In this document: positions 6,481 to 53,819 of the stretch, piece after piece
How the letters are laid out: each line of letters begins with the position of its first letter
How positions within the stretch are numbered: position 1 is the first letter of the stretch
NCBI GenBank assembly: GCA_040285855.1
Contig: JAUFOQ010000002.1
Coordinates: 1,860,001 to 1,924,000 of the forward strand
Reading direction: 5' to 3'
DNA length: 64,000 nucleotides
From: Eukaryota sp. GEM-RC1
Lineage: Eukaryota
Notes under the pieces: generated by a model
Told to the model about the DNA's origin: nothing
Databases searched by the model: none
The model's input: the letters and a program-made list of their open reading frames with translations, nothing else
Made by a program: the position numbers and the translations under genes

Positions 6481-7134
6481 TAAGAGAGAGGTGAAGTGAA
6501 GTGAAAATGGTTCTACTTAGTAGTTGAGTTCACTTCATTTTGAAGAACTCATTTAGAATCAATTTTAGCTCAGTACTTTTGGGTTTGCTACCATTAGTAG
6601 TGAGAGGCGTTCTGTACTACTCACAAAACCCTGAATAGTGACATATCCTCTCAGATTTTGACACTAATATTACTGTTTACTATTCGAGTAATTTGTACGT
6701 GAACATCAATTTAAGGCACATTTGTCATTTACAACCGAAATTATTTAATCAATCATTATTTATTTTCTGTTAATCTTTTGAAAATTTTAGGAAAATGATC
6801 ACTATTACAAGTATACACTCTATAAAATCGGATAAAATTGAGGTCATTCTGTATCACTAAATTGAAACCTAAAGATCTTCCACTTATTGAGCCTAGACGA
6901 AGCTGTCCCACACAATTGATCGAGGGACTAGTCAGAGAAAGGTTGTATGGTAAAGTTACATCTATATAATATGGGGAAATTTTGTAGAAACACTGTTTAG
7001 TCTGACAAACTACTGAAAATGTAAAAAAGGAATCAATTATATTGATAAAACTACATATGAAACAACGATCGTAAAGATCACAGAATTGGTTGAGTAAACC
7101 AAATAAAAATAGACTACTACTTGGATAACAATAA

Positions 7135-8383
7135 CTATGTCTTAGGAAAATTCAACAATTTGTGACAAACAAAGCATAAATGAAACCTGCTGTGGGCGCA
7201 ATGATTCAAACCAAGGTCATTAATGGTAATATTCTGCTTATTGTTCTTCTTTGTACCAATTGGACACGACAGTCGACAAGATTGAAAAGAGATTGACTTC
7301 AAATGAGTCATGGACGATTTCAAAGAAGCAATTTCCTGGAGATTAATTTGGGAATTTTCAAATGTTAGATGTAGAAGAAATTTAGGAAGACACGGAATTA
7401 AGGTAGTAATCCCAGTCACATTGTTTAAAGATAAAGACGATATGGACTCAGCAAAATAGGATAAACCGAAAGTTGATGGAATCGTGTTGGTGATCTGAGA
7501 ATATGATGTTGACAAGTCTGTACATGAAACGTCCTTGAAGTTGAGCATTAAATGATTCCTACGTAGAGTATTTTCTGGATTAATGCAAACGGAACCATGT
7601 ACACCAGTTTGACTGGAAATAAAGGAGGTTGTTAGAGAGTAAGTGCACGGAAACCGCAGAGATTCATCATCAATATCAACAACACACTGATTCAGATACA
7701 GAGAGTGAGAGAGGTAGACTCGAGGTATAAGAGAAGAAATGGTTTTCATGCAACAATCACAATGCATACGTGCAAGTTCCATGTCCAACTGTAAGATGGT
7801 CAATTGCTGCAAGGATGCTACTTCCTCAAGGAAATTGCATACTTTTTCATGAAGCTCTTTTGGATAGTCAAAAGCCAAATGCAAGTGTGTCAATTGCATA
7901 CGTTTTTCTTGTTTAAGGAAGATATCCAGGAAACCTACGGCAGAACCAACGAGTTTGACTTTCTGGGCATGGAAAGCAGAACAAGATTGCAACAATGGCA
8001 CTGACTTTAAGTCCAGTGTTATTGAGACAATGTTAGACAAATTAAAATCTTGGACTAGACGAAAATCCAGTCCAGAAGAAAGAACTCTGATTTGTTGAGA
8101 CATTGATGGCGAAAGTAGCGACAACAAGTTTAGAACATCAGAATCTAGAGCGTTAGTTGCAATAGGGAAAAAGCACAAAAAGCTTGTTCTGCAAGGTTGT
8201 ACAGGGCTTAATCTCCACCAAATCCACTTTTGATACTTGGTGAAGTGAGTTCATGGTGTGTTGGTGGATACCCCCCCATGTTATTGATACTAGACATGTT
8301 TTGAGAACAGTCGTGTATGTCATGAAGCGCAAACATTGGTTCAAACACAGTGTGTAGCGATCAATGATCTGGAATGATGACAT
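7135..8383 (-). pseudogene. Frameshifted copy of the LRR-like gene at 9186-10448
   Basis: Near-identical inverted copy, with a 23-bp deletion between TGCAAC microhomologies at about 8160. Confidence 0.8.
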
Positions 8384-9185
8384 GGTAGAAAGAAAATGTG
8401 AAATATTTTGAAATTTTCCAGTGTACTATCGAAATCCATTTTGCTGTCAGTCTCACATTGACGATTTCTTCAGACGTTTGTCCATTCATATTATTCTGCT
8501 GTAACATATACTATGGATGACAACAACGCGCAGAAGATCCATACATTTACGTACCAAGTGCATGTGTTAGGCATTACTAGGGAGTGGCAACCATTTACTG
8601 CAATACTCTTGCTACGTAATTTTGGACCGGAATAAACAATTGGTAGTGGTACAGTATATTTATGTATTTATATTAATGCCTTATATTGGACCAACAAAAT
8701 GAACAAAATCATTGATGCTCTAGGCTCTATAAGATGAGATTGAACTCACGATAATGAGACTAAAATGAAGGTGACACTATGGATAAATTAAAAGTGCATT
8801 AACAACATCCATCAAAGTGCCATAAGTGTCGATAAACTTCTAGTAAACTATAAACACTATAAAGGACAAACTAAAATTAAAAATCTCACTCAAAAGGGGC
8901 CAAATGCAACGTGAGTGCAACGCTCATTCCAAGTGTCTGAAATGGAATCACGGTTAAAATTGTGCCAATGCCTACGATATCTACGATATTACTAGTAAGT
9001 CACACTGTTCCCTGGATCAATTTTGAACAAAGACATCTTCAATCACGGAAAAATGTGAACACCAAATGGATGACAAACGATTCGTTAAAATCAGACGTCT
9101 TTCATAGAACATATTTGCAGCTCGCACAAAATGAAGTATTGTCAAAATTTCAAAATTTCAAAATATTTCACATTTTCTTTCTTCC

Positions 9186-10448
9186 ATGTCATCATTCCAG
9201 ATCATTGATCGCTACACACTGTGTTTGAACCAATGTTTCCGCTTCATGACATACACGACTGTTCTCAAAACATGTCTAGTATCCATAAAGGTCCACCAAC
9301 ACACCATGAACTCACTTCACCAAGTATCAAAAGTGGATTTGGTGGAGATTAAGCCCTGTACAACCTTGCAGAACAAGCTTCCCGTGCTTTTTCCCTATTG
9401 CAACCGCCTCCAAACGATTGATGCAACTAACGCTCTAGATTCTGATGTTCTAAACTTGTTGTTGCTACTTTCGCCATCAATGTCTCAACAAATCAGAGTT
9501 CTTTCTTCTGGACTGGATTTTCGTCTAGTCCAAGATTTTAATTTGTCTAACATTGTCTCAATAACATTGGACTTAAAGTCAGTGCCATTGTTGCAATCTT
9601 GTTCTGCTTTCCATGCCCAGAAAGTCAAACTCGTTGGTTCTGCCGTAGGTTTCCTGGATATCTTCCTTGAACAAGCAAAACGTATGCGATTGACACACTT
9701 GCATTTGACTTTTGACTATCCAAAAGAGCTTCATGAAAAAGTATGCAATTTCCTTGAGGAAGTGGCATCCTTGCAGCAATTGACCATCTTACAGTTGGAC
9801 ATGGAACTTGCACGTATGCATTGTGATTGTTGCATGAAAACCATTTCTTCTCTTATACCTCGAGTCTACCTCTCTCACTCTCTGTATCTGAATCAGTGTG
9901 TTGTTGATATTGATGATGAATCTCTGCGGTTTCCGTGCACTTACTCTCTAACAACCTCCTTTATTTCCAGTCAAACTGGTGTACATGGTTCCGTTTGCAT
10001 TAATCCAGAAAATACTCTACGTAGGAATCATTTAATGCTCAACTTCAAGGACGTTTCATGTACAGACTTGTCAACATCTTATTCTCAGATCACCAACACG
10101 ATTCCATCAACTTTCGGTTTATCCTATTTTGCTGAGTCCATATCGTCTTTATCTTTAAACAATGTGACTGGGATTACTACCTTAATTCCGTGTCTTCCTA
10201 AATTTCTTCTACATCTAACATTTGAAAATTCCCAAATTAATCTCCAGGAAATTGCTTCTTTGAAATCGTCCATGACTCATTTGAAGTCAATCTCTTTTCA
10301 ATCTTGTCGACTGTCGTGTCCAATTGGTACAAAGAAGAACAATAAGCAGAATATTACCATTAATGACCTTGGCCTGAATCATTGCACCCACAGCAGGTTT
10401 CATTTATGCTTTGTTTGTCGCAAGTTGTTGAATTTTCCTAAGAAATAG
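9186..10448 (+). CDS. Hypothetical 420-aa protein, weakly LRR/RNI-like
   Basis: Intact ORF with LxxLxL-type segments (LTHLHL, LTILQL, LSLNNVTGI, LKSISFQSC). Confidence 0.7.
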   Translation: MSSFQIIDRYTLCLNQCFRFMTYTTVLKTCLVSIKVHQHTMNSLHQVSKVDLVEIKPCTTLQNKLPVLFPYCNRLQTIDATNALDSDVLNLLLLLSPSMSQQIRVLSSGLDFRLVQDFNLSNIVSITLDLKSVPLLQSCSAFHAQKVKLVGSAVGFLDIFLEQAKRMRLTHLHLTFDYPKELHEKVCNFLEEVASLQQLTILQLDMELARMHCDCCMKTISSLIPRVYLSHSLYLNQCVVDIDDESLRFPCTYSLTTSFISSQTGVHGSVCINPENTLRRNHLMLNFKDVSCTDLSTSYSQITNTIPSTFGLSYFAESISSLSLNNVTGITTLIPCLPKFLLHLTFENSQINLQEIASLKSSMTHLKSISFQSCRLSCPIGTKKNNKQNITINDLGLNHCTHSRFHLCFVCRKLLNFPKK

Positions 10449-11202
10449 TTATTGTTATCCAAGTAGTCGTCTATTTTTGTTCATTTGGTTTTCTCAACCA
10501 ATTCTGTGATCTTTACGATCGTTGTTTCATATGTAGTTTTATAAATATATTTTTTTTTGGAAAATTTCTTTTTTACAGTAAGTTGTCATCCACGAACACT
10601 AAGTTTCAAACCAAGTAAACTATAGTAAGTTTTCGAAATGACCAACTGTAGATGGAACTTTACCACAAAATCCTTCTTGAGTACAGGGGTTCACCTCCTT
10701 ATTTGGGGAGAATTTCTCACATTCATAGATCAAAAGAACAGTAAAGAACAACACACATGTACTGAAAAGGTCAAACCATTGGAAAACAGAAATATCACAA
10801 AACTTCCATCACTCTAATTGACAACAAAGAATCAATTAATGACGAAAAAAACCACTCTAAGGAAATTTAAAGAAAAATAGTGTAAACAATATTTTATAAC
10901 CATACCTGAAACATTGACAAACTAGTTAAATACCCTATTTTAAGAACTGAAGAAAATAACGTGGGCAATTTGCTTACAATGTAAAAGTAGTGATTTTAAT
11001 ACACAAAAGACGAGTTAGACTCAGCCATTTAACAGGACAAATGGTCTCAAATACACTCAAAAAATTCTTTAATCGAAGAAGATCAAGTAAATGACTCGTC
11101 AAGAGATTCAGTTTGCAATAAAAGAAAACACAGCTCGAGAAACTGTAGCAAACGACTGTTCATATCCCGAAAGATCATTCAATTTTGAACTTGATAGAAA
11201 AT

Positions 11203-15803: not shown

Positions 15804-16447
15804 CAGTGTTGCGCCATTGTTTGCCATACACGTATGAACTCCCATACGTCCATACGCCCATACGCGTATGGCATTTTCTGTTTTGCCATACACATTTTGA
15901 CTACATGTATCTTTATTTGAACTTTTTCGATGCAGATACTCTAAGACGGGTTTTATCATAATGTAGATACATATACTTTATTGAAAACCAAACCTCCACA
16001 TCGTCCATCTCATTGGAAAAATTAGCACCATCAGGATACCATCTCTGCTTCCATTGCTTGATGTCTTTGATCTGAGTTTCATTGATTTGTATAGAAACCA
16101 TCTTTTGTGCGCTCCTTTATAAGTCTGTTTTTGTTTTTATCTCACTATTTTTGTTCTATAAAGTAAAAAAACTTCAAAAAGTCTGTTTCATCGTTTGTTG
16201 TGAATGAATGAGTACGTACTCAAACTCATTCACACGATTCTACAGAGCGTACTTGTTTTACTAATTTGATGACAAATTGCAGTGTAGGAGATGGTATTTA
16301 AACATAATGAAGTTAAGTGATGTTGGAAAGATTCTGCATATGGATAGATATGGCATGATGGCCATTGTCAGCCATTCTGCCATTCTACCATACGCCCATA
16401 CGCCCATACGCGTATGGCAAATTTATTTTGGTTATGGCGTAACACTG
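15804..16447. mobile_element. hAT-type MITE, family A
   Basis: TIR CAGTGTT(G/A)CGCCAT. 8-bp TSD ATAAATAA at 15796-15803 and 16448-16455. Subterminal CCATACG repeats. Second copy at 48251-48890. Confidence 0.93.
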
Positions 16448-18878: not shown

Positions 18879-19599
18879 TCATTTATAAGCAACATAAACT
18901 GTATGAAAAGATTCCAATGTCCACTGACTTTGATCATACCCACCATAAATTTCTATTCTACCGTAACCAGAACTCCTCAACCATCCTGCCACGTCATCCT
19001 TTTTACAGGGATACAGAGTCACAGAGTCTTGTTTCAGTATCTCCCCTTCAAGAGAAAGAGAAGTGGAGAAAGCAATAGAATCAGTTTTGTAAGAGTAGTG
19101 CCGGGAAAAAGACAGTTGTTTCCCTTCAAATGAACGTTGAATATCAGGAAGTTTGTCTGGTTTCTCAGCTAGGATTCTGTCATAATTAACTGTTGCAATG
19201 ACTAGACAGCTACCTGGATGAGTGACAATGTTGGTGTTTTTGATGAACTGATTTTGTTTGGATGATGGAACATGGGGAAGGGTATTACCAATGCAAATAA
19301 TGAGATCAAAAGTTCTGCCAGTGAATAGGGTGTCTATTTCTTCTAAAGAACCGAGACCAAGCTTGTAATCAGGAAGCAGAAGTGAACCCTGAACATGACG
19401 AATAAGGGCAGCGTCGTATTCTAACCCATATACATCAGCGTGTTCAGAAGCAAGAAATCGAAGCAAAGTTCCAGACCCAAAACCGACATCACAAATCTTT
19501 TTTATCACGAAAGTCTCCTACGATCGATCTTAGAAGAGACCTTTGGTGATCATTGATAGGGAAGATACATTCGAAATAGGGAATTAGTGAAGCGTACAT
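18879..19599 (-). CDS. Class I SAM-dependent methyltransferase, bacterial-like
   Basis: ICDVGFGSG, YGLEYD, FDLIICIGNTLPH and NYDRIL motifs. The N-terminus MYASLIPYFECIFP from ATG 19599 joins through a shift in a homopolymer at about 19500. Confidence 0.85.
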
Positions 19600-19782
19600 T
19601 GATTGCTACTAGTACAAGAAACCATGAGTAACTGGATATCTGGAAAAATCGACAATGATGCTCGTACAAATAGCTCAGTCAGCTGAGCCAACTCTCATAT
19701 CTAACAAACTTACTGTCATTTTTCAGTAAAACTAACACTATCTAATTATCGTTAATTGTTGTCAGTATACTGTATTTACTGT

Positions 19783-19929
19783 GAATTTCATTCCAAATGC
19801 ATAAGGGCATAACCCTTCACATTTTCATGATCTCATATAGAGCAAAACTCACAGTTTGAACAAATGTCTAAATTATTAGACAAATATCCTCATTCGCAAA
19901 GTCTTTTAAGACGAGCTAACTTCATAGAT
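19783..19929 (-). ncRNA. Candidate Fanzor omegaRNA scaffold
   Basis: Four hairpins lie just 3' of the stop codon, at 19901-19912, 19865-19882, 19840-19850 and 19803-19817. This is the position expected for TnpB/Fanzor omegaRNA. Confidence 0.55.
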
Positions 19930-22900
19930 TCAAGATTCCTGATCTTTCTGGTTTACGTGTGAGTCCTTGGGTACATCTTTCTTAGGCTTATTTGGACAAG
20001 TTGTTTTGTTATGTCCAGGTTGAAAACATATACCACACTTGTTAGGACCTCTGACAGTTGTTGGAGGACGTTTTGCTTTACCCTTACCCTTACTCACAGT
20101 CTTTTTCTTAGGAATCTGATCTGTATTCCCGCCATCCACGACAGGTTTTGTTTGAGATTTTGGTCTCTCGAGGATGGCAGGTCTACCTTGACCTTGAATG
20201 GTTCCATTTACAATATTGTAAATATTGATAGCAGAATTGAAGTCTCTATTCCAGAGGACATGACATTTAGCACATTCAACTAAGCCCCATGGTGAGACTT
20301 TGTTGTTCTTCAATCTTTCTTTCGAAAATGGCAACTGGTCAGTCCATTCTTCATCAAAGTTACGCTCCACAATATTGTCTAATTGATTGTGTTCCATAAT
20401 TTCCTTTTTTAATTCTTTCTCTTCCTTATGTAACTTCTTCTTCCAATGAGGATCAGTGACTTTTATCCTTTCAGGATTGGAGCAGATACCTTCGTTGTTT
20501 CTGGAAACACAAGCAGAGCAACATTTGCTGGTCTTAAATTCATCAACTAGGAACACTTTAAATCCAAATTTTCTCAATAATTTCCTAATTGAAGCACCTT
20601 TTACAGTAGATGCTTTACCTCTTCTTCGACGAAAAGCAGTGTCGTTCCAGTCTCCATACCCAACAACGACTTCATCTGGGTTTCCAAACTGGAGAGCAAA
20701 TCTGTGAAGCATGTTTTTCTCACTTCGTTCCTTTCTTGAATACTGTGTGAGACGATTCCTCCTAAACCACTTTTCTTCGTAAATTCCTTCTGTAGTTCTT
20801 TGATCAGTAGTGGGTGATCGTAGTAAAGAACAGGTAATTTCTTTACCAAGAACAAAAGCAGAATACAGAGTCAAATCACAAGATTTACTGCCTGGCGAGT
20901 TAGAGCCCCATTGATCTAAAATTTGTTGCCCATTTATGTCAATGCGTCTGCCATCTGGAATGTGAATAAATTGGGTAGAGTATTGTTGTAACCGTTCGGA
21001 TTCAGATAAACGGTGGAGATTGTATCGTCTTATTTTCTTCTCCAGCTTCCTCTTCTTTCTCTTAGCTCTTTTTCTTTCCTTCCTTGTTTTTTTCTTTTCC
21101 ATGGAGACTTTTTAATATCGGCATTGCGTTCCCCAGCAGTGTATCTGAATACTTTCCAATTATCACGATTTTTCAACTTGACAGTTGATGGTTTGTCAAT
21201 AGTAGGTGCGTCTTTCCAATCCTTCAATTCTTTTTTTAATTTTTTCAAGCTTCCTTTTTTCTTTGATGATTTTGGAGAAATCTTTCTTCTTCTGATTTTG
21301 GCTGATGTATCGAAACCTTCGATTTCCTTTTCCTCCTTAGATTTTAAAGAAGCACAATACATCAAATCATGCTGATTAGGATCAATCGCAACAATTCTTT
21401 TGGATTTCAAATTTAAGTTTTGAATTTCTGTGGAACTCAAAGAATCAATGTACCTTTCAGTAGCTGTGTAGTCAACAGCTTTCACCTTCTTATGAGGATT
21501 TCCTCTCCCATCAAGCAGATCTTTCCGCATCATCATTAAACTACAGCTAACTCCATCTGTAGAAATAGAACTGTATTTGAAGTCATGAGACAATGACTTT
21601 GGAAGAAACTTTGGTTTCAAAACTGAGTGCCAAATATCTTTTCGAACGTCATCAAAGCTACCTTTAATTTCTGATGCATGAACTTCTTTAAACCATGTAG
21701 TATCCAATCTGATATGATTAGGAATCAATGATTTTGTCAGAGGAAAAGGATTATTGGCAGTAACACCAGTACAAGAGTCCTCAACAAGACGTTTCAAATA
21801 CACTGCATGACTTAAGAATTTCAAAGGATCCACTTTTTCAGCATAATAGATTGTTTTTTCCATTTTACCTTCAAAAAAAGTAAACAAATAGTTAAAAAAT
21901 AGTAAACTCAGTCTAGAATTGGGATCAGGAAACACTTCAACATCTTGAAAATTAATTTTTGAAATTTCCCCATTAATGATCAACTGTCTGACTTCATTAA
22001 GCTTTGTACACAACTCTTGTCGTTGATTCTTATCACTAAGCTTGTTAAGTCTATCTTTTTCAGGGTAACCAAATTAAATACCTGAAAAACATATTCGTGA
22101 AAGTGTTCACTCATGTTAGTCTTGTAATTCGTTATAATTTCAGTAGCCATGTAATGCAATATACGAGATAAACGATGACTACTGGGAAACACAATCCTAT
22201 CAAGTCCAACGGAATCAGCAGCTAGTTCTAAACGAGGAATGTAATGCATCAAGAAATGTTGAGCAAACTGATTTTGAGTTGAGCCATCATTTGTGTTAGA
22301 AATTATGTTTGTTAACGATTCTTGTACAGTCCTAATATGATTCTGATTGTTTACAAGTTTGTAGTCCCTAATCGTCATCATAGACAACACTTGTTCCATT
22401 GATTTCAACGTAAAAAAATTCTTCCAGTCTGGCAATTCAATTTTGGAAGTTTGAATTTTAGTCCAAAGGTCAGGTTCAGGTTCACCACTCGCATCTTCAA
22501 TATTTTCTAATTTAACGGGAGGAGCAGTAGCATCGATAGACTCTGAATGTACATCTGTTTCTTCTTCAGTTGACTCATCTGTATCAGAATTCATTTCTTC
22601 CTTAACAGTTACATTTGGAACAGTAGCAGGCAGTAACTTCTGAATGTAACCTAAAATACCAGTATGTTGAAAATTATGAACAAAAAAATGTTTCAAAAAG
22701 AGAGTACTACGGACTCTTACTTGATGTGCTCTCTTAACACGAGATTCAATAAATTTAACCTTCGCTTTGGATACAACATTGTCTAGTCGTTTCTTAACCA
22801 CTTTCATTGGTGACTTTGAACGTAATGTTTGTTTTTTGGGATCCAATAGGTCAGCCAACAAGTATTCAATCAGAGGTAATTGTTGAATTGAGTTCATCAA

Positions 22901-25246
22901 CAATAGCGGTTTTGTCGATTCCTTGGCCCAAAGTTCATTTACTTTCTCCAAATTTCTTACAAATTTCTTTTTAATCTTATCGACCTTCACTTTAGGATTG
23001 TCTGGAACTAAAACATTAATACTGTCAATTATGCCATGCAAGTTTTGGACATTATTGACCAATTGAACTTCATCAGGATCAGAGTCATGATTAAGTTCTT
23101 CCAAGCGTTTGACAGTTTCATTTTTAGAAAAATTATTCATTTCAAGGAAAATGTGAACAACATTTTCCAAAAAACAACCACCAGTAAATACATAAAAATT
23201 CTTCAATACAGCATTCAAATCGAGGCTAAAAAAAGGACCAAAAGTTGTTTCCTTACACCATTTGTTGAACCAAAAGGGAATGTAGGGTTTAAATTCTGGA
23301 AAAGTAAACGTTGTATTGATTTTGAGGACTTGACAACGTGATACAAGAAAGGGAAATGTATCTAGAGTGAAAGTCATAACTCACAAACAATTGTGGACAA
23401 TGTTGAGTTATGAATGAAATGAAGTTTTTAAGCATACTGGATTCACTATCTGAAATATGTAAAGTACACAAATCCAAGTTTGAAGTATCAAAATTGCCAT
23501 GAGAAAATAAATGCTTTTCATTTAGCTCATTGTGATCAATGATCTGGATGGAAATTGATACAATCGGATCAACAGAAGAATCACGTTTAACTTCTAATTG
23601 ATCTTCAGCTTCACCTTCAACAGTTTCAATGTCATCATCATCTTCTTGAACAAGTTGAACATTTCTGCCATTAATTCTTTCTTTTTGGCAAAATCACTTT
23701 GAACATGAATTAAACAAAAAGTTGGTAGATTGTTCCAAAGTAGAGGGGATTTAAGAAAGTCTTGAATTTGTATTTCTTGTTCGATAGGCTCAGTGTGTAG
23801 ATTTACTTCCATATTAAGAATTTCTTCTTGAATTGGCGATGGATACGACATAATGGAGGCCTGTGATTTTGGTGGTAGTTCAGATGGAGGTAATTCAGAT
23901 GGTGATAGAGGTACTTCAGATGATTCCAATGTGGACATACGGCGGTGAGTCTTTCGTATTGGAGTGTCACCAGTTGAAACAAGGGAGCTGGTAGTTCTAA
24001 ATTTATTTTGTTGAATTAAAAGTGAACCTCGTGGTGATGGAATATCAGAAATTTTGGCTTTCCTTTTTTAGTGCTTAAACCAGTAGATGTTTTAGTGCTA
24101 GCAAGACGTGAACCTGTGAGAGGAATTGAAGTGGTTGGATGTTCTTTACCGGCAGGAGGTTGAATGGGTAACGATGGTACAATAGGAGCTACTGTGGTTT
24201 GACGTTGTTGTAGATAAAGTGTCCTTTGTTGAGACAAGACCTCCAGAATTTCTTCACGAAATATGTCTGCTTGAAAGAAAGAACTGTCCTTATCTAAACT
24301 CAACTGAGCCCGAAACCGTGCAATGGAGTCAGTCACAAGTTGAGTCAGATTAGGACAGAATGGCGGCATCATCGAAGCAACGGCAGTGGGGAAATCAACG
24401 GCAGTAGAGGGAGAAGCAACAGAAGTGGAGGCAGTGGAGGGAAAGAACTGTCCTTATCTAAACTCAACTGAGCCCGAAACCGTGCAATGGAGTCAGTCAC
24501 AAGTTGAGTCAGATTAGGACAGAATGGCGGCATCATCGAAGCAACGGCAGTGGGGAAATCAACGGCAGTAGAGGGAGAAGCAACAGAAGTGGAGGCAGTG
24601 GAGGGGAAAGAACTGTCCTTATCTAAACTCAACTGAGCCCGAAACCGTGCAATGGAGTCAGTCACAAGTTGAGTCAGATTAGGACAGAATGGCGGCATCA
24701 TCGAAGCAACGGCAGTGGGGAAATCAACGGCAGTAGAGGGAGAAGCAACAGAAGTGGAGGCAGTGGAGGGAAAGAACTGTCCTTATCTAAACTCAACTGA
24801 GCCCGAAACCGTGCAATGGAGTCAGTCACAAGTTGAGTCAGATTAGGACAGAATGGCGGCATCATCGAAGCAACGGCAGTGGGGAAATCAACGGCAGTAG
24901 AGGGAGAAGCAACAGAAGTGGAGGCAGTGGAGGGAAAGAACTGTCCTTATCTAAACTCAACTGAGCCCGAAACCGTGCAATGGAGTCAGTCACAAGTTGA
25001 GTCAGATTAGGACAGAATGGCGGCATCATCGAAGCAACGGCAGTGGGGAAATCAACGGCAGTAGAGGGAGAAGCAACAGAAGTGGAGGCAGTGGAGGGAA
25101 AGAACTGTCCTTATCTAAACTCAACTGAGCCCGAAACCGTGCAATGGAGTCAGTCACAAGTTGAGTCAGATTAGGACAGAATGGCGGCATCATCGAAATG
25201 TAGTTTTTTCGGATGTTTTCACTTCTTATTTTTGGACCCTTGCCAT
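19930..25246 (-). CDS. Fanzor RNA-guided endonuclease; about 1770 aa if the frameshifts are errors
   Basis: RuvC-I IVAIDPN (D at 21381-83), GYGDW, RuvC-II VDEFKTSKCCSAC (E at 20539-41), WGLVECAKC, RuvC-III WNRDFNSAINI (D at 20242-44). Upstream are FPLTKSLIPNHIRLDTT and STDGVSCS. The nuclease identity is strong; the full N-terminal extent is inferred. Confidence 0.9.
24277..25197. repeat. Tandem array of about 5.6 copies of a 164/165-bp unit
   Basis: TGGCGGCATCATCGAA recurs at 24361, 24525, 24690, 24854, 25018 and 25182. Units look identical apart from GGG versus GGGG. Confidence 0.97.
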
Positions 25247-25575: not shown

Positions 25576-26355
25576 TTAAACTGCTGACGTGTTTACTTCC
25601 ATACTAGAACTACGAGCACAAGAACTACAAGGATCTTCATCACAGATGGAATCCCACCGCGTTAACCATTTATTAACCCTACAAAGACATTTAGGATCAG
25701 TATCTGCCACGTGGATATGGAAATCAAAACTGGTAAAGTCAAAGCTGTTGCTAGAATCTGTTGTCATTGGATAGTAAAAGCAGAAATACACTGACAAATC
25801 ACGGAGAGTCATAGCCAAAGAGTACATCCTTGCAAGTTGACTAAACTCCGACTGTGATTCAGAATCAAGCCAATCATTAAGACCAATATCACCCATTAGA
25901 TTGTGAAGATCTTCCAATGAGGGCTCTTGATTGGCAAAATAATCACGAAACGAGAGAATTCCGACTTGATCTAGTTTCGATTGCAACGAGGCCAGTCGTT
26001 GAAAGAACTCCTGGGATCTACTAAAGAGACTGTAAAGAAGAGAGTGTTGTTGGGGTCTAGTGAAAGAAAGGGAGTGTGAAGGGTGGCCGTTGATGAAGAA
26101 CTTTAGGTTGTTTCTGGGATGGTTTAATAAGTCGGATATAGCGGAATCTAAATGGGATATATTGCTCAGTTTGAGAGGGCAAAAGTGGGTTTCAGAATTG
26201 TGGAGAAGACAGAAAAAACACGATGAAGTGTTGTTTTCAGGAGATACAGAAAGCCATTTTGGTTTGACTTCGACACAATAGCGATGGTAGAGTGGATTCA
26301 GAGGTAAATTCAAGTTATTGTCAACGTGAAGAAGGACTTCAGATGATGTGATCAT
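25576..26355 (-). CDS. Inositol-pentakisphosphate 2-kinase (IPK1)-like, apparently 5'-truncated
   Basis: CVEVKPKW, CFFC, FCPL, PRNNLKFF, MTLRDLS and VADTDPK motifs. No N-terminal GEG loop seen. Confidence 0.75.
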   Translation of the reverse strand: MITSSEVLLHVDNNLNLPLNPLYHRYCVEVKPKWLSVSPENNTSSCFFCLLHNSETHFCPLKLSNISHLDSAISDLLNHPRNNLKFFINGHPSHSLSFTRPQQHSLLYSLFSRSQEFFQRLASLQSKLDQVGILSFRDYFANQEPSLEDLHNLMGDIGLNDWLDSESQSEFSQLARMYSLAMTLRDLSVYFCFYYPMTTDSSNSFDFTSFDFHIHVADTDPKCLCRVNKWLTRWDSICDEDPCSSCARSSSMEVNTSAV

Positions 26356-26437
26356 TGAAGATACAGTTGGAGGTATGTTTAAGCATCATTGACAACAAAC
26401 CAGATCTGAAGTAAATGGGTCAAAAGGCAAAATTATT

Positions 26438-28316
26438 GATTTCTCTGAAAGTTCACATTTCATTAGAGTTTGACTATAATCTTGACAAAAATGACTGTGC
26501 TCTTGACAAAACTGACTAGAATCTTGACAGCTTCTCTTTTTGCTAGAATCTTGACAGAACGGACTAGATTCTTGACAAGTTGCTTTCTGATCCATTTCAG
26601 TGATATCTTCATTTCTTCGTCACTGCTTCATTGTCTCCCTCTTTATGTTCTGTAACTGGGAGCTTCTGCTTTCGTTATCACATATACTTTAGTAGTTCAA
26701 ATTCTACAGTTCACTATTGCTCTAGTGCTCACAATCACAATCTTTCTTGAATTTCTTACATCTTTGACAATGACTTCTGCTATCATGTCCTTCCTGGCGA
26801 CACACTCTACATTTCCTTGCGGTTTTCTTCTTTTGAGTTCTCATCACTCTACCATTCTCCTCATGAACTTTTGGACCTTCGTATCGATGGGCATATCTTG
26901 CTAAACCCACATTGGCAGCCTCTTCTAACCGTACCTTGTCTGCAGCTGACTCAGTAGACCGCCATTGATTGAACAGTTCTTCAACAGGATTAGAAATTTG
27001 ACCTGATTCTTCTTCATCATCTAACCACCACTGTCGATGAAACATATCTTTGGAAAATCTTTGTGTACTTTTAATGCTGTGAATACATGGAATTCCAGTT
27101 ATTCTCTCAGTTCTACCTGAATATACTGAATCCACATGATTCGTTTGGCTAAAAGCAATAATTTGTAAAACCTTCAACAAAGCAAAAGATGACACGTGTC
27201 GAATTACGTTCACAAATAAAGGGGTGTTGATCAGTTCTCGGTCGACTCTCTGCTTATCAACATCAATATTTCTTCTTAAGTCGATTACTTGATGCTCCAT
27301 AGTAGCCATAACATTTTCCATAGCACTCTCCAAGTCTCTTTTGTACATTCGATCTCCGGATTTTAGTGCATTGTGGGCGGACTCGGCTCGATTGTTCGTG
27401 TAAGTTTCAAAGTGAGTGAATTGGTCAATATTGTAATAACAGAAACTTTCCTTCATATCGAACCAATTGTTAATTAAATAGATGAAGGCATCACCACATT
27501 CTCGGTCATTTTCATATTTGCCTGTCATCACGTCCGAATTCCAACAAAATTCTTCGACTGCTTCACTTTGAATTACGGAGTAAAAATGTTCCATAAATAT
27601 TTTCCATGCTGGATCAGAAATTCCTTTAGCGTTCTTAATTTGGATTAAATTTTGAACGATATGGAACAAGCATAAAACGTGACCGGATGTAGGAAACACT
27701 TTCCTGACAGCATTAATCAATGCCTTTTCTTTATCTGTAAGAAAAACTCCTTGATTAATGTTAAATACATCTTTAAATTGTTCCAGAGTCCAAAGGTAGT
27801 ATTCTTCAGTTTCTTTCGCCATAAAGACACATGCAGCACGGAACGATGAATTTAAACAAGTAAAACCAACCACATGAAACATTGGCATACCAAAAGTATT
27901 TGTCTTATAAGTACTGTCAAGACAGAACACATACCGAAATCTTCTGGCAATCGACAGTACCTCCCGGTTTACAATAAACAGGGCTTCAAGTCGGTTTTCG
28001 GCATCAGACTTAACTCGAAAGATGTACCCGTCCGCGTTTTTTCACCTTTATCACCGGCCCAATTTTGCAGAGAGTTAACAGCATCTTCATAGGATTCAAA
28101 GGACATCAAATTATTTGGAACTGGTGTTGTTGGATTGATTGTAGGGTCCTCCTCATTTAAGACGATGTTTTGATTTAAGCTCATATTTATGAATAATAAA
28201 GAGAGATATTTGAGGGGAAGTGAAAAAGAAGTTGTCAAGATTTTAGTCAATTCTGTCAAGATTATAGCAAAAGTGATTTCATTAATGTAAGATTCGGGAG
28301 GGACGAAGAACCAATC
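26438..28316 (-). mobile_element. Mutator-like element (MULE)
   Basis: 9-bp TSD AAAATTATT at 26429-26437 and 28317-28325. Termini GATT...AATC. Inverted subterminal (A)TCTTGACA repeats at 26479-26578 and 28234-28262. Confidence 0.92.
26722..28184 (-). CDS. MULE (FAR1-type) DDE transposase
   Basis: LDSTYKTN, LTDKEKAL, LCLFHI, TNNRAESAH, GIPCIH and a C-terminal CRVCRQEGHDSRSHC. ATG 28184 joins with +1 A at about 28040. Confidence 0.93.
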
Positions 28317-28415: not shown

Positions 28416-28588
28416 CTGTTGTATCACCAAATGTTGTCATTACAAATGTTGTAGTTACAAATGTTGTCATTACAAATGTTGTATCACCAAATGTTGTAGT
28501 TACAAATGTTGTCATTACAAATGTTGTAGTTACAAATGTTGTCATTACAAATGTTGTGTCACCAAATGTTGTAGTTACAAATGTTGTA
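28416..28588. repeat. 15-bp-period minisatellite (CAAATGTTGT core)
   Basis: About 11 units of acaaatgttgtcatt, acaaatgttgtagtt and ccaaatgttg variants. Confidence 0.95.
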
Positions 28589-29256
28589 CATGTAGTTATA
28601 ACTTGGTGTCTTTGTGTCTTCTGATGCATGAAGCTTCATGGACTTGATGTCGTTGAGCTTAGTCTCATTGCAGATAGCATCCTGACGAAGTTGTTCAAAT
28701 TCTTCGCCATCTTGAAGAAGGTCCCAGTTTGTTAAAGTAAAGGGCATGTATTGAGGTGCAATTATTTGTGTGCAGACAATTCGGAATTTGATCTGACTCC
28801 TATAAATACAACTGACAATTGGTCAGTTTGGTACATTGTACTGTCTACAAACACATCATTAGCTTCTTTTAGATGAAAATGAGTTACCTCAGTCTGAGTT
28901 CATTATCATGTTTTGTGTTGCTATGCAAAAATGCAGTCAAAAACGACTGAAGACACAGCAGTGTATTACACGATCAGAGTTGTAGCAAACCTTAGTGTTT
29001 TCCTTTGGAGGATAAGATGTCAATGTGATGTATGTGTAATAGGATGGTTGTACAACGTTGAGTTTATTCATGACATGGTTGAACACGGTTCACAAGTCTA
29101 AGAACGAATACCTGCAAACACGTCTCTATCTTGAAAGAAGCTCAACACTGGATATCAAACGATGTATGGAATCCATCAAAGAAGGTATAAGTGTATCGGT
29201 TTGGGGATATGTGGTTATGGGGTGAAGAGTTTTTGGGGTAAAATGATTTTGGGGAG

Positions 29257-29697
29257 CAGTGTTTGAAAACCACCCGGGTGGAAATGAAAACCACCCGGGT
29301 GGCGTCTGGGTGGTACTGGGTGCATAATTTTGGTCTTACCATGATCTTCAATCCATGACTTCCTGAATACATACTTCCATGTTCAACCTGTCCTAAATAC
29401 AATTATTTTAACGGGAGTTACTTCCAGGGTCGGATAGGCTAATATCATCTTATTTATATAATTTGCAGAGTGTTTTTTATCCCAAACATGTATAAAGTTC
29501 TTCCTTGTTAGTTATTATATATCACACACTGCTAAAGTACTTTAAGTTTCATCGTATATGGTGTATAAAGTAGTTTTTGCACCAAAACTTATGTCTCGTT
29601 CTTTAATGCCACCCGGTGACCACCCGGGTGGAAATGAAAACCACCCAGTTCCACCCACCACCCGGGTGGCGTCCGGGTGGAAAATTTTCGAACACTG
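29257..29697. mobile_element. hAT-type MITE, family B
   Basis: TIR CAGTGTT(T/C)GAAAA. 8-bp TSD TTGGGGAG at 29249-29256 and 29698-29705. Palindromes CCACCCGGGTGG at 29270, 29291, 29620 and 29658. Confidence 0.93.
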
Positions 29698-30156
29698 TTG
29701 GGGAGTACTATAGTATGCACCCCAAATGAATTCCACAGTAGTGTTATGTGAACTCTCTATAATTGAAACGAAACTCCATTCAAGAGAGAGAGGTTACTGT
29801 ATGTATTCCGGTCACGTTATGTAACAGTGGACTATGTTATCAGTATCTCCGGTTTTAATTCCGCACGGAATGATTCACATTCAAATTTTGGGCAGCACAC
29901 CGTGATAATAAAGGGAGTACAGTTCCACATATGGTATAGATGTTATCAGCATCGAAAAGTAACTGAGGTATTCAGCAGGATCTATTTGCAAGAATGCACA
30001 TGACAGGGTCAAGCAGAGGACATGGAGAATGGTACTTTTGATTCATGAACAATGTTGAAGTGGTGTTGAATAAAGCACAAAGTCATACATCCACGCCATG
30101 CTCTGGAGGCGTGCTATATCTGTAGAAGTAACAGCAAGGTGCTTATAGAGAAGAAA

Positions 30157-48250: not shown

Positions 48251-48890
48251 CAGTGTTGCGCCATAATTGAAAATAAATTTGCCATACGCGTATGGGCGTA
48301 TGGACGTATGGTAGAATGGCAGAATGGCTGACAATGGCCATCAAGCCATTTCTAGCAGAATCTTTCCAACATCACTTAACTTCATTATGTTTAAATACCA
48401 TCTCCTACACTGCAATTTGTCATCAAATTAGTAGAACAAGTATGCTCTGTAGAATCGAGTGAAAGAGTTTGAGTACGTATTCTTTCATTCACAACAAACG
48501 ATGAAACAGACTTTTTTCACTTTGTAGAACTAATTTTAAAAAAAAAAGTGAGATAAGAACAAAAACAGACTTATAAAGGAACGCACAAAAACTGGATTCT
48601 ATACACATCAATGGAACTCAGATCAAAGACATCCAGCAATGGAAGCAGAGATGGTATCCTGATGGTGATAATTTTTCCAATGAGATGGATGATGTGGAGG
48701 TTTGGTTTTCAATAAAGTATATTTATCTACATAATTATAAACACGTCACAGAGTCTCTGTGTCGAAGAAGTTTCAAATACAGATACATGTAGTCAAAATG
48801 CGTATGGCAAAAACAGAAAATGCCATACGCGTATGGGCGTATGGACGTATGGGAGTCCATACGTGTATGGCAAACAATGGCGCAACACTG
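48251..48890. mobile_element. hAT-type MITE, family A (inverted copy of 15804-16447)
   Basis: TIR CAGTGTTGCGCCAT. 8-bp TSD CATTTTTT at 48243-48250 and 48891-48898. Confidence 0.95.
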
Positions 48891-51278: not shown

Positions 51279-53819
51279 ATGTTCAGTCCTGATAATCCTG
51301 TTCGTAGAGGTAACATTGGTCGCGGTGCCCGTGGTGCCAGTCGAGGACGTGGTCGTCGCTTAGGACTTAGAGGCCGTGGTGGTGGTGGTCCTCGTGATGT
51401 TGGCGTATGTTTCTTTGACTGATTCTTACAACAGTTTACCTATTTGCAAGATCAACTTGCAAGAAAAAATGTTGGTGAAACTCAACTTCTGACTAATTGT
51501 CACCAAATTCATGTATCTGATCAACCTCTTTGGGTTTATGCTCCTTCTTTTCCCGCTACCGTTACTGATGATCTTTTCCGTAGACGAATGGTGACCGAAA
51601 TGTGGGAAACGGCTTTTGGTAGCAAACATCAGATCCCATTTGGTGAGATCGTGTTTGTTTCGAATCTGATCTACACGTTGAAGCCCATTGAACAATTTCA
51701 CGATACCTCTTATGATGTTCGACACCACAACTCCCGTTTCAACATGGAAGTTACTTTTATCCGTCAAATCACAAACCGAACTCCCACAAGTATTGATGAA
51801 TCACAGCTCAATGAACAACTACATTCTTATTTGTTGCAATTAGCTCTCAGAAAATCGGACTTGGTTCATTTCCACTCCAACTACTATGACCGTGAACCCC
51901 GTACTCATGAACTTTCAGATGAGTTTGATATCTTACCCGCATGGGTACCCCGTTTGTTGTGGCGTTCTTCTGGTTGGATTCTAGAAGTCCATACTTATAA
52001 CAAGGTATTGTGCAAAATCAACATGCTTGATTCCCTTAAACAACGGAAAGCTCACTTCCAAGGACCTGAAGAACAAATCCACAATCAATTGCATGAAGAG
52101 GTAAAATGGGGAGTGTATTGGCTGTCTCACAGTCACAAGTTTGTTACGTTGGGCGGTATAGATTGGACTAAGACACCGTCATCAACCTTTGACAATAATG
52201 GAACTACTACTTCATTTGCTTCTTACTTCCAACAAGTATACAACGTACATCTCGAACCCAACCAACCTCTTGCTTATCGTTGGATCGGATATAGAGAAGA
52301 GTACGCTTACTACCCTATTCAAATTTTAAAAAAATCTGGAAACTTTTCTGAACCCCTACTTGAGATCATCAATCAACTCACCCAAACCAAGCCTGGCGAA
52401 ACTGTTCAGAGAATCAGAGAATTCTTTGAAGTAATGACCAAGCAGGTGTCTCAAAACAATCGTGCTCCAACCTCTCCCATGGATTTCTTGAAGAACTGGG
52501 GAATTCAGTTACCTAGTAACGCAGAACAGTCCTCTATTGTAGTTGACACCATTGCCCTCAAGCCATTCACCATTGATATTGGCTCAGAACGTTTCCCTTC
52601 TTCTGATGGATTCTTTGCACCCAAGTTAAGGAATATTCAGATTCCAAATCCTCAGCCTATCAACAATTGGGTCTATGTTTATCATGATGCTACAGAGGCT
52701 TTTGCTTTGAAGATGCTTGATTTTATCAAAAGTCGTATGGAACAATTGAAGATTAATGCTGGAGATCCTTTGGTTATCCTTGTACCTGGAAGAAACAGAT
52801 TCGACCAGCCCTTAGACAATGCTCTTGAGGGTAAAGCTCCTCCTCAGTTTGTCTTTGCTTGTGCCATTGACCAGGACAAGACCACTTATGATTTGTTTAA
52901 GAATTATTGCACCACTCGTGGAATTGTTTCACAGTACTTTGCTGAGTCTGAAGTTAAATCTAAACCTCAAGCTGTTATTGGATCTAACCTTGTTCTTCAA
53001 GCGCAGGCAAAACTTGGTGCCACTCTCTGGAATGTCGAACTTCCTCCTAAAGTTTTTGGTCCCAATGGATCCTTCCCCACTTTGATTCTGGGTATGGAGG
53101 TGTATTATGGTAAGCATACTGCTTCTTGTTTGGCTCTTGTAGGCATGTTTGTGTTCCACAACAAACTTTCTTGGTTCTCCAAAACTAAGGAATTGCCTCC
53201 TACTCAAGAAGTCTCTCAACTTGTTACTCCGTTGGTTGCGGAATGCCTCCAGCACTTCAATTCTATTAATGCTCCTGAACCCCGAACAGTGATAATCTAC
53301 AGAGATGGAGTTGATGAATATCAGTTTAACTTGGTACGAAGTCTAGAGCTTGAACCCGTCAAGCAAACCATTAAGGCGACTCACCACGAAGCTTGTATTG
53401 TCTTTAACATTGTCCAAAAGGGAGTCAACACAAAGTTCTTCTCTCCTAATACTAGAGATCTCAACCTGAGTGCTGGAACTGTTATCAGCTCTACTGTCAC
53501 CAGGGATCAGTCACTGTTTGGTCACGATTACTTTATACAATCTGGCATGACTGAAGTTGGAACCTCAAGTCCAGTTCATATTAATGTTCTTTACAATGAT
53601 CTTCCTCCTGAAGCTGGTGTCCAACCTTCTGATTTATATGATGTGACTTACTCTTTATCACATATGTACTACAACCAGGGTTTTGCCATTGATGTTCCTT
53701 GTGTTTGTCGCTATTCTCGTCGTTTGGCTGTTTTTATGTGTGAACACACCATTTCTACTGCCGAAACTCCTCTGATGCCTGTTCCAAGTCTGTTATTGGA
53801 CAAGCTTTATTATATCTAG
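51279..53819 (+). CDS. Argonaute family protein, PIWI-like; intron 51405-51434 (30 nt)
   Basis: RG-rich exon 1 (GRGARGASRGRGRR). PAZ region TPSSTF...SFASYFQQVY...QPL. MID region YDLFK...SQ and AKLG. PIWI region IIYRDGV, VQK and LSHMYYN...VPC. Confidence 0.93.

Follow-up and report, generated by a model that had tools for sequence, protein, structure and literature searches.

A tandemly repeated 5' leader in a multicopy Fanzor1 family of predicted 2A polyproteins from Eukaryota sp. GEM-RC1

The element and its genomic neighborhood

The window analysed here, a 64-kb stretch of DNA taken as a whole, contains on its minus strand a Fanzor element that begins with a tandem array (24277-25197), continues through six overlapping ORF pieces that span 24453 to 19930, and is followed by a structured region that may form its right end (19700-19960). 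Near its 5' end lies an inositol-pentakisphosphate 2-kinase (IPK1) gene (25576-26385), and a SAM methyltransferase gene (18879-19600) adjoins its 3' end. A MULE (26469-28272; PF10551, E 6e-27), with terminal inverted repeats (TIRs) made of short sub-repeats, is located directly upstream of the IPK1 gene. Both this MULE, which has TIRs of its own, and the IPK1 gene were considered as parts of the element and rejected. Other repeats in the window are a ~1.4-kb inverted duplication (7035-10552; 95-98% identity) with two convergent/divergent copies of one ORF without a Pfam match, a MITE-like non-coding pair of ~620 bp (15804-16429 and 48270-48890; 88-99% alike) with repeated terminal motifs, a tandem array of 11.5 copies of 15 bp (28417-28588), and a short element whose inverted ends are palindromic and rich in GC (29250-29700). 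A PAZ-Piwi (Argonaute-family) gene at 51423-53819 (Piwi, E 8e-49) indicates that the host has an RNA-silencing effector.

When run on the whole window, TRF placed the array at 24277-25197 with a period of 164, 5.6 copies, 99% matches and a score of 1833, in agreement with the boundaries, period and copy number that had been proposed in a sequence-only reading of this DNA. Units start at 24277, 24441, 24606, 24770, 24934, and 25098, giving successive periods of 164, 165, 164, 164, and 164 bp and then a 100-bp partial unit; four of the five full periods are 164 bp, as that reading had counted. On the minus strand each unit of this kind (leader monomer type A) consists of a 100-bp module and, after it, a linker of 64/65 bp, and the array comprises five full units and one 100-bp module. 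The five full units show zero substitutions across their first 150 bases, and the sole difference found between units is in the G-run preceding the next unit, which has one additional base in unit 2. Three variants of the unit are absent from the other 73 of the 74 proteins fetched, yet are common to the units of the array. The array is therefore likely to have grown recently from one unit, which bears out the recent expansion suggested earlier.

Module and linker differ in structure. The module forms a hairpin, located at 25105-25179 (minus strand) in the first module and recurring in every unit, with a ~20-bp stem and an inner region of ~30 nt (RNA z -3.40, with 0 of 200 shuffles folding as well; DNA z -3.20). 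The linker is unstructured (z +0.95) and minisatellite-like, with sub-repeats of 18-21 bp (the 18-bp ones appear in the TRF output); its sub-units range from 15 to 21 bp and vary from copy to copy. Rfam returned 0 matches at the gathering score for the whole window and just six weak matches (E 0.87-8.9) for the array unit alone, and no Pfam family scored above its cut-off for the repeat-leader peptide.

Every module opens with two in-frame ATG codons (25188-25193 in the first, minus strand), which share the phase of the downstream ORF provided that each unit is 165 bp long. The length of the G-run decides the frame, as had been supposed. The 165-bp unit has six frames, and the only one without a stop codon is the frame in phase with the ORF downstream. 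Its minus-strand translation yields the same 55 aa as the peptide reported before. The open frame of the unit is by itself weak evidence, since base shuffling leaves any given frame of the unit without stops in 20% of cases.

Exonuclease and Fanzor1 domains downstream of the array

Behind the array, the minus-strand ORF pieces first encode a Ser/Pro/Lys-rich polyprotein linker (23700-24273), in which one base is missing from an A-run near 24068. Over 24273-23030, 397 of 412 codons are identical to those of the sister protein P0033. The linker leads into a PolB-type 3'-5' exonuclease domain (22900-23700, minus strand, limits approximate) recognized by PF03104 (29.4 bits; cut-off 23), with a base missing in an A-run near 23685 and an extra base near 23363. 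Exonucleases of the PolB type are characterized by the motifs ExoI (DxE), ExoII (YN..FD), and ExoIII (YxxxD). These catalytic motifs are degenerate in the subfamily of this copy and intact in the RCL proteins P0016, P0057, and P0059. Protein P0015 represents a second RCL family, in which ExoI and ExoII are apparently intact (PF03104, E 1e-15).

The remainder encodes a probable Fanzor1 nuclease (19930-22800, minus strand), identified by the TnpB zinc finger (PF07282, E 1.2e-8) and by its RuvC residues: the RuvC-I Asp at 21383, the RuvC-II Glu at 20541, and the RuvC-III Asp at 20244. A Cys of the zinc finger follows the RuvC-II Glu six residues later, which is the arrangement of Fanzors described in the available text of PMC13565253. 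All elements of the published Fanzor1 motif, D-X(125,275)-[TS][TS]-XX-C4 zinc finger-X(5,50)-RD (as given in the text available for PMC3627910), were found, with a D-to-TS spacing (~284 codons here, 281 in P0016) slightly over the range. An A-run near 22062 is short by one base. One further frame change falls within an A-rich overlap of frames at 21111-21030; alignment with the distant P0016 puts the break of this fifth frameshift near 20899, outside that overlap. PDB sequence searches with two fragments of this copy gave 0 matches. The Fanzor part is predicted to carry out RNA-guided DNA cleavage.

The 3' region (19700-19960, minus strand) is a candidate for an omega-RNA scaffold and the right end of the element. 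It folds well as a whole (z -3.55) and less well in sub-windows (z -1.83 and -0.55). The omega-RNA of SpuFz1 sits at the corresponding 3' position, according to the sections available from PMC10432273. A small hairpin rich in GC, with a T-rich stretch behind it (19673-19688, minus strand), is a candidate 3'-terminal hairpin, to be taken as a lead only; these 401 bases contain 14 inverted pairs of 6 nt or longer, of which it is one.

Sister copies encode a predicted 2A polyprotein

A search with the 466-aa ORF piece against 1.84 billion representatives returned 16 matches, five of them 91-97% identical, and 74 proteins were fetched in total. NCBI labels the near sisters as Eukaryota sp. GEM-RC1, and the farther matches come from TZLM3-RCL and TZLM1-RC. 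Skoliomonas sp. GEMRC and RCL are free-living metamonads according to the text seen of PMC11316075, and we infer that they correspond to the NCBI labels.

In the GEM-RC1 sisters, the leader monomers are followed by a 2A (StopGo) motif, a Ulp1/SENP domain, a low-complexity linker, the PolB-type exonuclease, and the start of Fanzor1. The 2A motif D[IV]ESNPGP is present in 23 GEM-RC1 proteins on 11 contigs and conforms to the consensus DxExNPGP (from the available part of PMC3894237), suggesting that ribosome skipping is likely at this site. Two of three RCL proteins also have the motif, and the third has Leu in place of its first Pro. One or two Ulp1/C48 domains (PF02902 above cut-off) lie 3' of the motif, and the catalytic His, Asp, and Cys motifs of Ulp1 are found in 21 of the 23 GEM-RC1 2A proteins. 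The AlphaFold model of P0051 is poor (mean pLDDT 39) and usable for the Ulp1 part alone, which Foldseek matched to NEDP1/SENP (E 1.2e-7). A second body type with two Ulp1-like domains was observed in P0002, P0014, P0064, and P0071; P0002 is a chimera in which the second protease is fused to an exonuclease of the array-copy type.

The exonuclease model PF03104 scores above cut-off in the sisters as in this copy. No fetched GEM-RC1 protein reaches RuvC unbroken. The complete arrangement is found in the RCL proteins P0016 (1,473 aa) and P0057 (1,479 aa), which combine 2A, exonuclease, and a complete Fanzor in a single frame, without Ulp1. The best PDB matches of P0016 are SpuFz1 (E 6.8e-7), its sole TnpB-family match, and Pol delta (E 4e-4). 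The 2A leaders of the RCL relatives are 101-112 aa long and belong to none of the four monomer types described below. Judged by domain content, the element family is a predicted 2A-Ulp1-exonuclease-Fanzor1 polyprotein with a 5' monomer array. The sisters showed no reverse transcriptase, DDE, or RepHel domain; reverse transcriptase was likewise absent from the ORFs of the 64-kb window and from all five clusters with the 2A-Ulp1 region. A metagenome scan with P0051 gave 0 of 85 candidates, viral scans gave 0 of 2 and 0 of 207, and the ESM Atlas provided no usable match.

The copy in the window is damaged

All 13 of the type-A sisters that span the stretch have 237-241 aa between the last module and the motif QA[DN]IF, including 2A and Ulp1/SENP. 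Here the module and QA[DN]IF abut in frame (24270-24280, minus strand), and no 2A motif is present anywhere in the 64-kb window. On this comparison, an in-frame deletion of ~240 codons took 2A and Ulp1 out of this copy. At the 5' junction (25194-25200, minus strand) the element starts with the final bases of a linker and the start of the sisters' first module is missing; the sisters have 11 further codons upstream of a variant first module. This copy thus appears to be 5'-truncated. No target-site duplication (TSD) was found, the longest repeat being 7 nt and within the neighbouring host gene. No TIRs were found for the element, and module and 3' end share no inverted match longer than 7 nt. 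Relative to its sisters, the copy is a damaged one: truncated, internally deleted, and carrying one private indel outside homopolymers.

Leader monomers vary in type and number across the family

The sisters bear the same module at their own 5' ends, confirming that the array belongs to the 5' part of the Fanzor element. Comparison among them also indicates that such arrays are a family trait and not a one-off, a point that the earlier reading had missed. At least two in-frame monomers are present in 14 of the 23 GEM-RC1 2A proteins (2-8 each; overall range 1-8), counts taken from predicted proteins, a source biased towards open frames in which monomers farther upstream may be hidden. Four leader types can be distinguished among the 23: A, the type of this array, in 14, B in 6, C in 1, and D in 2. 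Type A leaders in the sisters have 2-3 monomers with linkers of 11-26 aa and a period of 42-58 aa, while type B reaches eight in-frame monomers (P0063) with a period of 38 aa. Type C has ~3 monomers with a period of 76 aa and type D has 2-3 with a period of 27 aa; neither bears any likeness to A or B, yet both occupy the same slot. Monomers of types A, B, and D open with or contain an in-frame Met. The sequence-only reading had also allowed for an inactivating expansion, which is unlikely as a rule for the family, given that P0063 keeps its eight monomers in frame.

Leaders and bodies have been recombined. Type B is found three times on body X and three times on body Y, and type D once on each. 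Because both types occur on both bodies, leaders seem to have been exchanged near the 2A site. In a gapless comparison, A and B are identical at 15 of 32 residues and are separated by 21 minimal base changes; shuffled versions of B need 54 on average, and 0 of 5000 came as low. The changed codons amount to 8 of 10 in the inner region, the supposed helix, and 7 of 16 in the stem (p 0.08, a trend only), and nearly all A-to-B changes of helix codons are single-base. At the DNA level A and B are accordingly homologous by this measure, but the peptide is not conserved, and the leader peptide does not look like a conserved domain.

Frameshifts and the 164-bp units

Whether the 164-bp units are real bears on the frame of the array in this copy. 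We consider it probable that they are one-base miscalls of a C4 run. Among the sisters, the C-run at the junction of module and linker is in frame in 12 cases versus 3 with the same -1 slip (P0067, P0068, and P0074, on other contigs), although 9 sisters start at an inner monomer or linker and upstream slips may be hidden in them. Three of the four pinned frameshifts downstream are missing bases in A-runs, which make up 4% of the stretch (P 2.5e-4). Slips at these A-runs recur in other sisters (3 of 27, 5 of 14, and 14 of 15). Against a miscall, A/T runs inside the element are not shortened relative to the rest of the 64-kb window, and the extra base near 23363, which 14 of 14 sisters lack, lies outside any run. 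The slip at 22062, at 22050-22075 between the N-terminal part of Fanzor and RuvC, is the one shared by 14 of 15 other sisters, and being near-universal it could be a real or programmed frameshift, or a systematic miscall. Short-read correction of nanopore assemblies fails in repeats. The named sisters were assembled from R9.4 nanopore reads with short-read correction, as stated in the part of PMC11316075 consulted. An apparent frame change, noted by eye, is also present at an A-run near 19500 in the host methyltransferase gene next door.

Interpretation of the array

The reading that we favour, tentatively and at slightly less than an even chance, is that the array is a tandem-expanded 5' leader monomer of a multicopy Fanzor1 family, in which the monomers would serve as stackable promoter/start-codon units and the encoded peptide is predicted to be discarded at 2A. 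In its favour are the arrangement of the sisters, the homology of A and B at the DNA level, the hairpin of the module, and the analogy with L1. The start codon could come from any monomer, and skipping at 2A would release the leader, such that the enzyme part would always start at the same proline whatever the length of the array. Because any monomer could start translation and 2A would fix the N-terminus of the enzyme, arrays would be free to vary in length and type; they could grow, shrink, be truncated, or be swapped while the frame holds. Of the cis-acting signals that the monomers may carry, a promoter is the most likely, and its presence in tandem would shield it from 5' truncation, as has been proposed for L1Md. 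Expansion might proceed by slippage or by unequal exchange between copies during copying or repair, and repair of cuts made by Fanzor is perhaps the source of arrays, swaps, and deletions. One point against the analogy with L1 is that no reverse transcriptase backs it (0 of 5 clusters). The RCL leaders, which show none of the four monomer types, also count against the favoured reading.

The array might alternatively be a neutral variable-number repeat: a leader that 2A cuts off is dispensable, slippage would pile up repeats, and the frame alone would be selected, leaving the monomers without function. Such an origin is unlikely in our estimate, but it accommodates several observations, namely that the sub-units of 15-21 bp make a minisatellite of the linker itself, with differences from copy to copy, that types C and D are unlike A or B, and that the peptides are unconserved. 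It is harder to reconcile with the expansion of four types in one slot, each repeating a defined monomer with a sharp end, or with the significant hairpin of the A module, which has a homologue in B across subfamilies.

Somewhat less probable, and improbable in our view, is that the modules are left-end hairpins of Helitron2/HLE2 elements that became stacked through read-through or the capture of ends, with the element as a non-autonomous Fanzor1 passenger of a RepHel encoded elsewhere. The lack of TIR and TSD and the small hairpin at 19673-19688 are compatible with this. So are literature precedents, as far as the available portions of these papers describe them: CRe-1/2/3 are often 5'-truncated and internally deleted with an intact 3' end, as here (PMC3627910), HLE left ends are diverse and may be doubled as direct repeats (PMC11417382), and there are non-autonomous Helentron-type elements with central repeats and a 3' palindrome (PMC4067079). 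No RepHel was seen in cis, however, and the module finds no inverted counterpart above 7 nt in the 3' end. Nor is the module terminal, given that the sisters have at least 11 codons more upstream of the first one, and the stacking of ends does not account for an open frame, in phase with 2A, in all four types.

The sequence-only reading had proposed a multivalent helix-plus-linker protein module fused to a Fanzor, and this now seems quite improbable. With 165-bp units, a frame does run from the first ATG across the deletion junction into the exonuclease-Fanzor ORF, so that a fusion is possible in this copy, and skipping at 2A is sometimes incomplete (in the part of PMC3894237 available). In the intact sisters, however, 2A lies between array and enzymes (in 13 of 13 type-A sisters 2A and Ulp1 separate the array from exonuclease-Fanzor), which would limit fusion to this deleted copy. 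The supposed helix fares no better: type B differs at 8 of its 10 codons and has prolines in it, the slot is filled by four different peptides, two of them unrelated types, the leader has a pLDDT of 24-34, and no Pfam family exceeds its cut-off.

We give very little credence to a CRISPR-like or omega-RNA array of hairpin scaffolds and guides cut to unit length. The layout of hairpin plus linker recalls such arrays, and omega-RNA arrays with long repeats are known beside prokaryotic TnpB (from the text available for PMC10691335), but there is no spacer diversity, the linkers being identical within the array and sharing the same sub-repeats across type-A sisters. The array also precedes the gene on its 5' side; the omega-RNA of Fanzors and most arrays of Cas12, by contrast, are found on the 3' side (available sections of PMC10432273 and PMC10691335), and module and structured 3' region share at most 7 nt. 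It is equally far-fetched that the array length is an assembly artefact, despite the identical units and the uncorrected indels in the stretch, since 921 bp is short relative to long reads, both junctions are unique, and arrays of 2-8 units, with variants of their own, are found in sisters from other contigs.

Beyond the promoter/start-codon reading of the array, one might speculate, with low confidence, that the element spreads by itself, by means of a virus-like polyprotein and without a transposase or reverse transcriptase. Fanzor would cut, the exonuclease would trim, and the protease would strip SUMO/NEDD8 from host factors; host repair would then copy the element from its 3' end, and swappable arrays would regenerate a promoter after 5' truncation.

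Comparison with known systems

The comparisons that follow reflect the portions available of the papers cited. The nuclease resembles SpuFz1 of Spizellomyces punctatus (PDB 8gkh; PMC10432273) in its RuvC D/E/D residues, in the six-residue distance from the Glu to the zinc finger, and in the structured 3' region past the stop, and SpuFz1 is the best PDB match of P0016. SpuFz1, however, is a protein of 633 aa inside TIRs (PMC10432273), whereas here the nuclease ends a polyprotein of at least 1,470 aa without detected TIRs, and 2A, Ulp1 (in GEM-RC1 only), and exonuclease precede it behind the monomer array. With CRe-1/2/3 of Chlamydomonas (PMC3627910) the element shares a Fanzor-only coding content, 5' truncation, internal deletion, and an intact 3' end. 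It differs in that no TSD or asymmetric TIR was found here, and a tandem array, exonuclease, protease, and 2A go unmentioned for CRe in the available text of PMC3627910.

The arrays resemble those of mouse L1Md (PMC6454616), which also consist of 5' tandem monomers in copy-variable number, with several types and position-specific subtypes. The number of L1Md monomers varies and the promoter is retained through truncation (PMC6454616). L1 monomers, however, are untranslated and belong to a retrotransposon, whereas those described here are in frame with the ORF of an element for which no reverse transcriptase is known. Like L1Tc/ingi, the 2A single-ORF non-LTR elements (PMC3894237), the sisters have an N-terminal leader ending in DxExNPGP before the enzymes, but these are APE and RT in L1Tc/ingi and protease, exonuclease, and Fanzor here. 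The engineered exoCasMINI (PMC12337685) joins an exonuclease to a compact Cas12/TnpB-type nuclease; in the Fanzor family the fusion is natural, involves a PolB-type domain, and is predicted from sequence.

Fanzors are described as compact single nucleases on known DNA transposons in the accessible text of the Fanzor papers checked. A published description of a Fanzor in Skoliomonas or as a 2A-Ulp1-exonuclease polyprotein was not found in the literature searched. The word "exonuclease" is absent from the main texts of PMC3627910, PMC10711439, PMC10530073, PMC10432273, PMC13565253, PMC10691335, and PMC11423790, as far as these were available, while their supplements or Repbase could list such proteins. 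The family would unite three designs known separately: L1-like 5' arrays, a 2A leader of the virus/LINE type, and the joining in nature of an exonuclease to a Fanzor, together with a SUMO-type protease. We regard the predicted polyprotein as the main result and the array by itself as of moderate interest.

Two RCL proteins, P0016 and P0057, have an unbroken frame and intact exonuclease motifs and should therefore be directly expressible and assayable. With them one could ask whether natural systems rely on the kind of exonuclease fusion that engineers build into compact editors, and the roles of accessory enzymes in Fanzor homing are approachable through them. With at least 23 close copies on 11 contigs and no mover in cis, the spread of Fanzor-only elements becomes testable in one genome.

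A metagenome scan with the RuvC alignment recovered 28 distant loci with 22-42% identity. None of the 28 has a 2A motif or Ulp1, and the sole exonuclease-like match is weak (locus L002, E 0.013). Tandem repeats were observed upstream of two of these distant Fanzor ORFs, at 1838-3016 in L002 (348 bp, 3.4 copies) and at 176-524 in L003 (70 bp, 4.4 copies).
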